Shown: positions 55,307-57,852 of the stretch, in pieces
Layout: the number at the start of each line of letters is the position of its first letter
Numbering within the stretch: position 1 is the stretch's first letter
Assembly: GCF_048403405.1 (NCBI RefSeq)
Contig: NZ_CP183129.1
Direction: 5' to 3' (one strand)
Source of the DNA: Escherichia coli
GTDB taxonomy: Bacteria > Pseudomonadota > Gammaproteobacteria > Enterobacterales > Enterobacteriaceae
Length of the DNA stretch: 64,000 bases
Program-made: the position numbers and the translations under genes
Notes under the pieces: generated by a model
Database searches by the model: none
What the model saw: the letters and a program-made list of their open reading frames with translations, nothing else
Told to the model about the DNA's origin: nothing

Positions 55307-56470
55307 TTACTTTTGATTGTCGATTCTGGTGAGAGCAACCAGCAATGCCAGCGTATAACACACCGTAATTGCCAGACTCATTTTTAACAGTGTTTCTCCG
55401 CCAATTCCCGACAATGGCGCGGCTATACCGCCGAAGACAAACATGCTCATCCCCATCAACGCAGACGCCGTTCCAGATTCCTGCGTCCCTACTGCACTCA
55501 TAGCCTCTGCCCCGCCAACAGTGCCGATGCCGCTACAAAATGCGATGGTGAAAAATAATGCCACCAGTGCCGGAATGGGCAATTGTATCCATGCGCATAA
55601 GACCGTGAGCAATGCACACAAAATTGCCGCTATCAGGCCACCTCGCAACAATGTCATCGCGTTAATCCGTCGCGCCAGGCGCGAGAAGATCCATGAAGCA
55701 ATGATAAGTCCGATGCCGTTAAGGCCAAACACCAGGCTAAATTGCATTGGATTAAAGCCAAATTCCTTCTGCAACACGAACGACGAAGAGCCGATATATG
55801 CAAACAAACCGGCCAGCATAAAACTTTGAATCAGGCAAAAGCGCATAAAACGGCGGTTCTGCACCACGCTTCGTCCGGTTAATAGCAATGATGAGCCCCT
55901 TTTATTTTCTGGCAAGGTCTCATTAATAAATAACAGGCAGCCCAGCAACAGTACGGTGCTAATTTCAGCCATTACCCAGAATAAAGTGCGCCAGTCAAAA
56001 GTGCTGACAATGTACCCGCCCAGCACTGGCGACAACACCGGTGCCAGGCCATTCACCGTCATTAACAGCGCAAAAAACTGGGTCAACGTTACTCCCTGAT
56101 ATTTGTCACGAGCAATAGAACGAGAGAGCACCGAACCACCCGCCCCCGCGATCCCTTGAATAAAACGCCAGACCACCAGCCAGTAAATATTGTTCGTTGT
56201 CGCGCACAAAATGGAAGAAACAATAAACAATAGCAACGACAAGATTAACGGACGTTTACGCCCTATTTTGTCGCTCAGAGGGCCAAATAACAGTTGTCCG
56301 ACGCCAAGACCGATCAGTGATGCAGTCAGCGTTAATTGCGTTATGGTCGTGGTTGCCGCCAGTTGCTCAGACATCTCCGGCAAAGCCGGCAAATAAAGAT
56401 CGGTACACATCGGGCCGATACCGGCTAAAAGACCAAGAATCAATGCCCATGAAAGAGAGACTCTAGCCAT
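55307..56470 (-). CDS. MFS transporter, DHA1 (Bcr/CflA-like) drug:H+ antiporter family
   Basis: 387-aa ORF with 12 predicted TM helices and the DHA1-type motif GPLSDKIGRKRPL after TM2; AGGA Shine-Dalgarno inside the 3' end of the upstream OMF gene. Confidence 0.8.
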   Translation of the reverse strand: MARVSLSWALILGLLAGIGPMCTDLYLPALPEMSEQLAATTTITQLTLTASLIGLGVGQLLFGPLSDKIGRKRPLILSLLLFIVSSILCATTNNIYWLVVWRFIQGIAGAGGSVLSRSIARDKYQGVTLTQFFALLMTVNGLAPVLSPVLGGYIVSTFDWRTLFWVMAEISTVLLLGCLLFINETLPENKRGSSLLLTGRSVVQNRRFMRFCLIQSFMLAGLFAYIGSSSFVLQKEFGFNPMQFSLVFGLNGIGLIIASWIFSRLARRINAMTLLRGGLIAAILCALLTVLCAWIQLPIPALVALFFTIAFCSGIGTVGGAEAMSAVGTQESGTASALMGMSMFVFGGIAAPLSGIGGETLLKMSLAITVCYTLALLVALTRIDNQK

Positions 56471-56478
56471 ATTATTCC

Positions 56479-57852
56479 TTACTTGAGTGATGACATGCCG
56501 CCGCCCAGCGACTGCCAGAGCGTGATTCGGTTTGTAAAATCAGTCAGTTGTAGTGCCAGCAGCGCCTGCTGTGCGCTCCACAAGCTGCGCTGCGCCGTCA
56601 ACACGGTCAGGTAATCACCAACACCCGCCTGATAGCGACGCAAGCCAACATCGACCGTTTGTTGCTCAGCTTTAACATACTGGCGCTGTGCATCCAGTTG
56701 CTCTTCAAGCGTGGTCCGCCGCGCCAGTGCGTTAGCGACATCTTTAAATGCGCTCTGAACGGTTTTTTCATAGGTGGCAATGAGTCCACGCTTTTGTGCT
56801 TCTGCGTAACGAAGCTGCGCCAGATTACTTCCGCCAGTGAACAGCGGTAATGTGACCGATGGCGTAAATGACCAGATCTGCATTCCGTGGCTGAACAACG
56901 ACGACAATGCTTCACTGCCAACACCAGCGCTGGCAGTCAGCGAAATCGTCGGAAAAAAGTTAGCCCGCGCCGCGCCAATATCGGCATTGGCGCTCTTCAA
57001 ATTATGTTCCGCTTCCTGGATATCCGGGCGACGCAGCAGAACGTCAGATGACACTCCCGCAGGAACCAGACTTATCATCTGTTCCGGCAGGCTTTCCAGT
57101 GTTCCCGGTAGCAAATTTTCCTCAAGCGTTGTACCTGCCAGTAAGTTCAGCGCATTTTTATCCTGCATCACTTGTGTCTGATAGCTGGCAACGCTGGCGC
57201 GCGCTTGCTGATAAACACTCATCGCCTCACTGACATCTGTCGCTGCCGCCGTGCCAACCTGTTGCTGGCGCTGGATAATTTTCAATGAGTTTTCTGCACT
57301 GGCCATCGTTTCTTTTGCCAGGGCCAGGTTGCTGTTATCAGCCGCCAGTGTCAGCCAGGCGGTGCTGATTTCAGCAATCAGCGTTAAACGAGTGTTCTGG
57401 GCTGTAAATTCACTGGCAAGCCAGGTTTCCCGCGCCGCCCGAGATAAACTCTGATTACGACCAAACAGATCTAACGTAAAACTGGACACCGTGCCGTCAG
57501 CCTCGGCAGTGGTTTCCGTACCATTCGCCAGCGAACGACTGCGGGTTGAACTTAAGGCCGCATTCACCGTCGGGAATAACGACGCATTAGTTTGCCCATA
57601 GAGCGCCCGTGCTGAGTCAATATCAGCAATCGCTTTTTGCACATCGCGGTTACTGTTCAGTGCAATAGTCACCACCTGCTGCAATCGGGGATCGTGGATC
57701 ACCTGCTGCCAGTCATGGCTGATTGCCTTTCCCTGGCCCTGTGCTCCCGGCAAGGTCGCCGGGATTGGGGATTCAGGCGTGCTGTAGTGGGGCTCGAGCG
57801 AGACACATCCCGCACTCAACAGCACCAGAAAAATAAGAGAACGACGCAACAT
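56479..57852 (-). CDS. Outer-membrane efflux lipoprotein, NodT/OprM family
   Basis: 457-aa ORF; lipoprotein signal with lipobox LLSAGC; two TolC-like repeat halves. Confidence 0.85.
   Translation of the reverse strand: MLRRSLIFLVLLSAGCVSLEPHYSTPESPIPATLPGAQGQGKAISHDWQQVIHDPRLQQVVTIALNSNRDVQKAIADIDSARALYGQTNASLFPTVNAALSSTRSRSLANGTETTAEADGTVSSFTLDLFGRNQSLSRAARETWLASEFTAQNTRLTLIAEISTAWLTLAADNSNLALAKETMASAENSLKIIQRQQQVGTAAATDVSEAMSVYQQARASVASYQTQVMQDKNALNLLAGTTLEENLLPGTLESLPEQMISLVPAGVSSDVLLRRPDIQEAEHNLKSANADIGAARANFFPTISLTASAGVGSEALSSLFSHGMQIWSFTPSVTLPLFTGGSNLAQLRYAEAQKRGLIATYEKTVQSAFKDVANALARRTTLEEQLDAQRQYVKAEQQTVDVGLRRYQAGVGDYLTVLTAQRSLWSAQQALLALQLTDFTNRITLWQSLGGGMSSLK

Follow-up and report, generated by a model that had tools for sequence, protein, structure and literature searches.

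The window analysed here, a stretch of 64,000 nucleotides from Escherichia coli, carries an MFS drug exporter gene directly behind the last gene of a tripartite RND efflux operon, an arrangement which raises the question of whether the two pumps are mere neighbours, share a transcript and its regulation, or form a two-stage relay in which one delivers substrate to the other. The exporter gene (55307..56470, minus strand) is eefD, which as fifth cistron closes the E. coli chromosomal operon eefRABCD, already known as a named and published locus to which the present window adds no new object. The reading of the whole operon preferred here, at a probability of about 0.88, is that EefABC and EefD are co-regulated and overlap in their substrates, as separable modules rather than an obligate relay.

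The significance of the locus has been set out in published work, in which eefRABCD is the seventh RND system of E. coli, limited to the phylogroups most tied to infection, and in which loss of the repressor can bring back multidrug resistance in strains lacking AcrB. Added here are an Escherichia-specific gene junction within an older gene order, the occurrence of the two modules apart from each other in nature, and the chromosomal context of supposed "plasmid" copies.

Identity and distribution of the locus

The gene order in the RefSeq annotation is fabI, TetR, adaptor, RND, OMF (outer-membrane factor), MFS and sapF, so that the five co-oriented genes for regulator, adaptor, RND permease, OMF and MFS exporter stand in the published eefRABCD order between chromosomal fabI and sapF. 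The flanking genes, the EefR operator and the EefB residues described below are three independent markers that identify the window with the published locus. This 7.8-kb stretch matched the E. coli MS 69-1 chromosome at 100% identity, with fabI and sapF on either side, and all tested features, protein lengths included, agreed with eefRABCD of SMS-3-5, ATCC 25922 and ATCC 35218. No difference from the published E. coli operon was found, the copy in the window being one allele of it.

The operon was first noticed in 2008 in E. coli SMS-3-5, according to the account given in PMC12817139, and has been characterised in two studies (PMC12817139, PMC12482432). A survey of more than 19,000 assemblies placed it in phylogroups B2, D, E, F and G, invariably between fabI and sapF, and in none of phylogroups A, B1 and C (PMC12817139). 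In the present analysis the whole cluster was found in 2037 of 5426 complete E. coli genomes (about 38%). In 1759 E. coli genomes the match was partial and was rejected, as it covered only 57 nt of sapF that formed part of the query; since the remaining matches consist of these 57 nt alone, an E. coli genome has either the whole cluster or none of it. The examined "plasmid" copies of the operon in E. coli are set in ordinary chromosomal neighbourhoods.

The operon lies in a segment of 7,862 bp that is absent from K-12 (55265..63126, no strand assigned), K-12 homology ending at 55264 on the sapF side and restarting at 63127 on the fabI side. Remnants of eef genes in the K-12 fabI–sapF segment have been described (PMC12817139), whereas none were found there in this analysis by blastn with a word size of 7 and E <= 1e-3. 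Base composition gave no signal of recent horizontal transfer, the GC content of the five genes (0.48-0.54) lying around that of the window (0.51), and a comparison with Rfam gave no known RNA families in or near the operon.

The tripartite pump and the MFS exporter

The three pump genes each scored above the cut-off of the respective protein family, as in HAE1 RND tripartite pumps of the AcrAB-TolC or MexAB-OprM type. The periplasmic adaptor lipoprotein of 373 aa encoded by eefA (60963..62084, minus strand) matched TIGR01730 with 273 bits against a cut-off of 94.9 and carries the lipobox LLSGC; its open reading frame extends over 60963..62117, and the RefSeq start is at 62084. The HAE1-type RND permease of 1035 aa encoded by eefB (57856..60963, minus strand) matched TIGR00915 with 1548.7 bits against a cut-off of 940 and has D408, D409, K935 and T972, the proton-relay residues listed in PMC12817139. 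The NodT-family outer-membrane factor lipoprotein of 457 aa encoded by eefC (56479..57852, minus strand) matched TIGR01845 with 373 bits against a cut-off of 210 and carries the lipobox LSAGC. Together, EefABC form a complete AcrAB-TolC-like tripartite pump with an outer-membrane channel of its own.

The product of eefD is an MFS exporter of the Bcr/CflA family (DHA1) with 387 aa (RefSeq WP_000135016.1), which matched TIGR00710 with 280.8 bits against a cut-off of 200.9, its residues 7-378 aligning on profile positions 5-380 of 385. The start codon is supported by the RefSeq annotation and by orthologues aligning from residue 1. The closest solved relatives are EmrD and MdfA, single-component 12-helix antiporters, whose structures can be aligned with almost the whole of EefD. 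In a rough hydropathy scan some 10 distinct peaks were seen; the near full-length alignment with EmrD, together with published models (PMC12817139), supports a predicted topology of twelve helices arranged 6+6. EefD exceeds the cut-off of the same Bcr/CflA family model as the single-component DHA1 exporters EmrD, MdfA and Bcr, and scores under the equivalog cut-offs for Bcr, EmrD, MdfA and TcaB. The genes of EmrD, MdfA and Bcr are monocistronic or unlinked to an RND pump, whereas eefD is linked to one. Against TIGR00711 (EmrB/DHA2) EefD scored 76 bits, below the cut-off of 230 and over the N-terminal part only, which places it outside the EmrB/DHA2 family, so that docking to EefA or EefC is not expected. 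EefD would be an inner-membrane, single-component drug/proton antiporter of the Bcr/CflA type, with a compartment and a direction of transport that we infer.

Regulation and transcription

The top minus-strand promoter-like site of the region (62852..62879, minus strand), with TTTCCA, a 16-nt spacer and TATAAT and 10/12 matches in a consensus scan, lies 5' of eefR and 9 nt upstream of the EefR operator. This operator, the palindrome TGAGAACGATCATTCTCA (62825..62842, minus strand), is an exact 18/18 match to the published 18-bp motif, to which EefR has been shown to bind by EMSA (PMC12482432). The form TGAGAA-N5-TTCTCA given in the Discussion of PMC12482432 had no match near the operon; the two half-sites are in fact 6 nt apart, and the 18-mer occurs there without mismatch. 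The repressor gene eefR (62233..62799, minus strand) encodes a TetR-family protein of 188 aa from the RefSeq start (WP_000202113.1, TetR/AcrR). A longer eefR reading frame of 221 aa was rejected, as its start would fall upstream of both promoter and operator. EefR would repress the operon promoter through binding to its palindrome, and transcription would begin 5' of eefR and continue through eefA, eefB, eefC and eefD.

Two hairpins flank the pump genes. A predicted terminator-like hairpin, GGGGGATATTAATCCCCC followed by TTATTTCATT (62195..62212, minus strand), lies in the 148-nt spacer between eefR and eefA, where published RT-PCR indicates at least some read-through (PMC12482432). A hairpin with a 13-bp stem, a stability of -32.7 kcal/mol and no U tract (55265..55302, minus strand) follows eefD, between the convergent eefD and sapF, and its last base is the sapF-side edge of the segment absent from K-12.

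That the RND pump genes and the MFS gene share a single transcript was part of the original prediction, and it agrees with published measurements. All intergenic junctions from eefR through eefA, eefB and eefC to eefD were amplified by RT-PCR from cDNA of ATCC 35218, deletion of eefR raised eefA, eefB, eefC and eefD 83-, 28-, 43- and 27-fold in qRT-PCR, and the eef genes were the top up-regulated genes in RNA-seq of the eefR deletion (PMC12482432). The RT-PCR across the OMF-MFS junction that had been proposed as a check was already in print, with a product obtained. The RT-PCR template was random-primed, which shows continuity of the transcript and is compatible with an extra weak internal promoter. 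The prediction had named a separate promoter and terminator of the MFS gene, with no co-expression and no additive or synergistic phenotype, as the finding that would speak against it; the consensus scan gave neither a terminator-like site at the junction of eefC and eefD nor a minus-strand promoter-like site there or in the 3' part of eefC, alongside the published co-induction.

Gene junctions and translation of eefD

The predicted distances between the last three genes were confirmed: eefC and eefD are joined as AAG TAA GGAATAAT ATG, which leaves 8 nt between the OMF stop and the MFS start at 56470, and eefB and eefC as GAG TAA GTT ATG, a gap of 3 nt. The predicted 1-nt overlap of adaptor and RND genes is present as one common base (60963), but not through the ATGA motif given for it, since ATGA would mean an overlap of 4 nt; the sequence reads GCC TGATG. 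The eefD Shine-Dalgarno sequence had been placed inside the OMF coding sequence, whereas it is TAAGGA (56481..56476, minus strand), lying across the eefC stop codon and the 8-nt spacer (together 56471..56481, minus strand). Within Escherichia the junction takes the form TAAGGAAT(A/G)(A/G)T ATG, with TAAGGAGCAGT ATG in E. albertii, and the 8-nt spacing was found in E. coli, E. albertii, E. whittamii and another Escherichia species.

The duplex of the eefD Shine-Dalgarno sequence with the 16S rRNA tail was estimated at -6.1 kcal/mol, and all five genes have Shine-Dalgarno-like sites of -6.1 to -9.3 kcal/mol, to be read against a background of 119 ATGs in the cluster with a mean of -3.25 and 15% at -6.0 or lower. 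In the predicted fold of 110 nt around the junction both the Shine-Dalgarno sequence and the ATG are unpaired, and the folding stability of the junction region was no greater than that of shuffled sequence (z = -0.88). Translational coupling of eefC and eefD is plausible from the sequence, in that the 8-nt gap would permit it and nothing would enforce it. With a moderate Shine-Dalgarno sequence across the eefC stop, eefD could be initiated by ribosomes finishing eefC or by ribosomes starting afresh, a mode of initiation that we infer.

Comparison across Enterobacteriaceae

Orthologues of EefD with 66-82% identity are widespread in Enterobacteriaceae, as seen in a protein database, contig look-ups and tblastn. 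A peptide-pattern scan of genome contigs with EefD gave five loci, 4/5 of them in Escherichia, the wider set coming from the protein database and contigs. The eef loci of Klebsiella aerogenes, K. pneumoniae, Enterobacter, Raoultella, Citrobacter koseri and Pseudocitrobacter likewise have the order A-B-C-D, with identities of 85-90% for EefB, 76-84% for EefA, 74-87% for EefC and 66-82% for EefD. The order is R-A-B-C-D in Escherichia species, the C. koseri-type contig, Enterobacter hormaechei and Pseudocitrobacter, and A-B-C-D without eefR in Klebsiella and Raoultella. Most of the loci outside Escherichia are flanked by an acetyltransferase gene and, at the opposite end, by murQ-like, PTS, EamA and YicS genes, while the neighbours on the C. 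koseri-type contig differ from these. The RND-OMF-MFS arrangement is thus old and conserved, which speaks for a link in function or regulation.

In contrast to the 8 nt of Escherichia, the eefC-eefD gap is 18-157 nt in the other genera, often with a GC-rich hairpin: 18 nt in the C. koseri-type contig, 45-48 nt in Klebsiella and Raoultella, 49 nt in E. hormaechei, and 157 nt, with many repeats and strong structure, in Pseudocitrobacter. A GC-rich hairpin was found in each of the 45-49-nt spacers; covariation in this hairpin amounted to one pair changed on both sides among four sequences, too few to judge. The 8-nt junction is a derived and Escherichia-specific state rather than a conserved requirement of the system.

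The modules also occur separately. Kluyvera has only eefR and eefD, with 141 nt between them and no eefABC, so that an eefC-eefD gap is not applicable, and some Enterobacter species have eefRABC without eefD (PMC12817139); the two modules can thus exist apart. In some E. coli assemblies an eefD-like gene with 76% identity stands alone beside a Tn3-family transposase.

Pump activity of EefABC and EefD

In DH5alpha without acrB, eefD alone (pBReefD) raised resistance to sanguinarine, chloramphenicol, tetracycline, erythromycin and clindamycin about 4-fold, and pBReefABC conferred 8- to 32-fold resistance (PMC12482432). The MIC pattern of pBReefABCD was the same as that of pBReefABC, from which its authors concluded that there was little or no synergy, a result obtained on a limited drug panel (PMC12482432). 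Deletion of eefD slowed ethidium efflux even with AcrB present, and the fall in ethidium accumulation under co-expression was marginal and non-significant (PMC12817139). The two studies disagree on the export of antibiotics by EefABC and EefD: PMC12817139 found no antibiotic phenotype for either, only a dye phenotype, whereas PMC12482432 found multidrug resistance in acrB-deficient hosts. For the two-stage relay with synergy, too, the check proposed with the original prediction was already in print, and the relay was not borne out by the equal MICs of pBReefABCD and pBReefABC and by the non-significant drop in ethidium accumulation (PMC12482432, PMC12817139).

Alternative readings of the junction

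At one extreme, eefD could stand as a gene in its own right, driven by a separate promoter, the RND operon being a mere neighbour. This is highly improbable: although solitary eefD-like genes stand beside a Tn3-family transposase and the Kluyvera eefD comes straight after eefR, the 8-nt gap is too small for a promoter, the 3' part of eefC holds no minus-strand promoter-like site, and RT-PCR products span the junction of a gene induced 27-fold upon eefR deletion (PMC12482432). Strict coupling, in which all or most EefD would come from ribosomes that end eefC and restart 8 nt on, so that the EefD:EefC ratio is fixed, has a better claim and is still rather doubtful. The unpaired Shine-Dalgarno sequence and ATG, in a region structured at the level of shuffled sequence (z = -0.88), imply no forced dependence on upstream translation, and the orthologous gaps of 18 nt, of 45-49 nt containing a GC-rich hairpin, and of 157 nt imply that tight coupling is not a conserved requirement; eefD is moreover active when cloned alone (PMC12482432). 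These observations outweigh the short gap, the overlap of the Shine-Dalgarno sequence with the stop codon, the retention of the junction within Escherichia and the analogous mdtC-mdtD junction of K-12 with its 0-nt gap.

At the other extreme stands a hard-wired relay, in which EefD would move a shared native substrate from cytoplasm to periplasm and EefABC would then carry it across the outer membrane, with a multiplicative effect on that substrate. It is generally established that single-component pumps can feed tripartite pumps, and the RND-OMF-MFS order has been kept in at least six genera; loss of EefR induces both modules (PMC12482432), and deletion of eefD slows ethidium efflux with AcrB present (PMC12817139). 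A multiplicative effect is nevertheless at odds with the unchanged MICs upon addition of eefD to eefABC (PMC12482432) and with the marginal, non-significant change in ethidium accumulation under co-expression (PMC12817139), and an obligatory partnership with the Kluyvera locus without eefABC and the Enterobacter loci without eefD. The available data lean against an obligate two-step relay, and the hard-wired version is unlikely. A narrower proposal, in which a dedicated two-step route would serve a native substrate such as a host or gut metabolite and the spacer shortened in Escherichia would fix the ratio of the pumps by re-initiation, is more speculative and somewhat less probable again; if it were true, synergy would be visible only with that native substrate. 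Co-regulated and separable modules remain the preferred reading.

Comparison with mdtABCD

The original prediction had named mdtABCD as an analogue in K-12 that lacks an outer-membrane factor, a fair description for K-12, in which that operon contains no OMF gene; it did not identify the locus in the window as eefRABCD. In mdtABCD-baeSR the MFS gene likewise abuts the RND genes within one operon, with a gap of 0 nt between mdtC and mdtD. MdtD, in contrast, has 471 aa and belongs to another MFS family; its alignment with EefD, 25% identity over only 101 residues, gave no homology of the two proteins. The operons also differ in control, mdtABCD being under the two-component system BaeSR and eefRABCD under a TetR repressor. 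The two are analogous, not homologous.

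Apparent replacement of the eef segment in K-12

The comparison of the fabI-sapF interval between the window and K-12 points to an exchange of one segment for another. The 7,862-bp eef segment (window 55265-63126) corresponds in K-12 to a 633-nt segment carrying ycjD (2689-3321 of the K-12 fabI-sapF locus, L023), and blastn at word size 7 found no similarity between the two. The edge of the eef segment on the sapF side falls exactly on the final base of the hairpin 3' of eefD. From these sequences, the K-12 state looks like a replacement rather than the deletion proposed in PMC12817139, which was described as leaving recognisable eef fragments behind.

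It has also been claimed that eefRABCD is plasmid-borne and prone to rapid spread. E. coli records carrying eefRABCD and filed as plasmids include L019 (NZ_CP141085.1), L020 (CP054253.1) and the sequence match H46. One such record is 4.9 Mb long. Two others, of 385 kb and 252 kb, were typed as non-mobilizable and hold eef in its usual chromosomal setting, with pdeR, rnb, yciW and fabI on one side and sapFDCBA, ymjA, pspF and pspABCDE on the other. These records look like mislabelled chromosome fragments, not plasmids, which weakens the published claim.

Known and candidate regulatory sequences around eefR

The spacer between eefR and eefA (window 62085-62232) includes a terminator-like hairpin (62195..62212), which TTATTTCATT follows, and three further inverted repeats, one of which, TTTCTC-N6-GAGAAA, lies immediately 5' of the eefA start. 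Because of this hairpin and these repeats, read-through from the eefR promoter into eefA may, judging from sequence, be attenuated. According to PMC12482432, a phenotype depends on sequences 5' of eefA. The EefR palindrome, TGAGAA CGATCA TTCTCA (window 62825-62842), has a spacer of 6 nt, as in the Results of PMC12482432, the Discussion of which gives 5 nt.

Variation of the eef locus in other genomes

The eefC-eefD spacer of Klebsiella, Raoultella and Enterobacter hormaechei is 45-49 nt long (comparison loci L007, L010, L015 and L017, 7950-8003; L021, 7949-8003) and contains a GC-rich hairpin. The stem of this hairpin measures 7-11 bp, and a clear U tract is missing; the hairpin might act as a transcription attenuator or stabilise the upstream message. 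The Escherichia junction lacks it. In a Pseudocitrobacter MAG the spacer reaches 157 nt (L006, 7844-8000), is rich in repeats and has a very strong predicted fold (-77.5 kcal/mol), resembling a small repeat element inserted at this position.

Kluyvera carries adjoining orthologues of eefR and eefD (L008 and L009, 7293-9164), separated by 141 nt with eefABC missing from between them and with flanks matching the Klebsiella context, an arrangement reflecting either a clean loss of eefABC or an ancestral eefR-eefD unit. K. pneumoniae CP172124.1 (L007, 2500-7960) has an intact eefD, truncated versions of eefA and eefB, and a fragmented eefC. The eefB of L012 is divided into two ORFs of 748 and 273 aa, which may be an assembly error. 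Some E. coli assemblies encode a solitary EefD-like protein of 404 aa with 76% identity (L013, 3314-4528; L014, 2895-4109), with a Tn3-family transposase gene approximately 1 kb upstream and gapA-like and tnaA/tnaB-like genes nearby.

Separately, the McaS/IsrA small RNA (window 1992-2087; RF00115, 112.8 bits) was the only Rfam match at the gathering threshold across the window.
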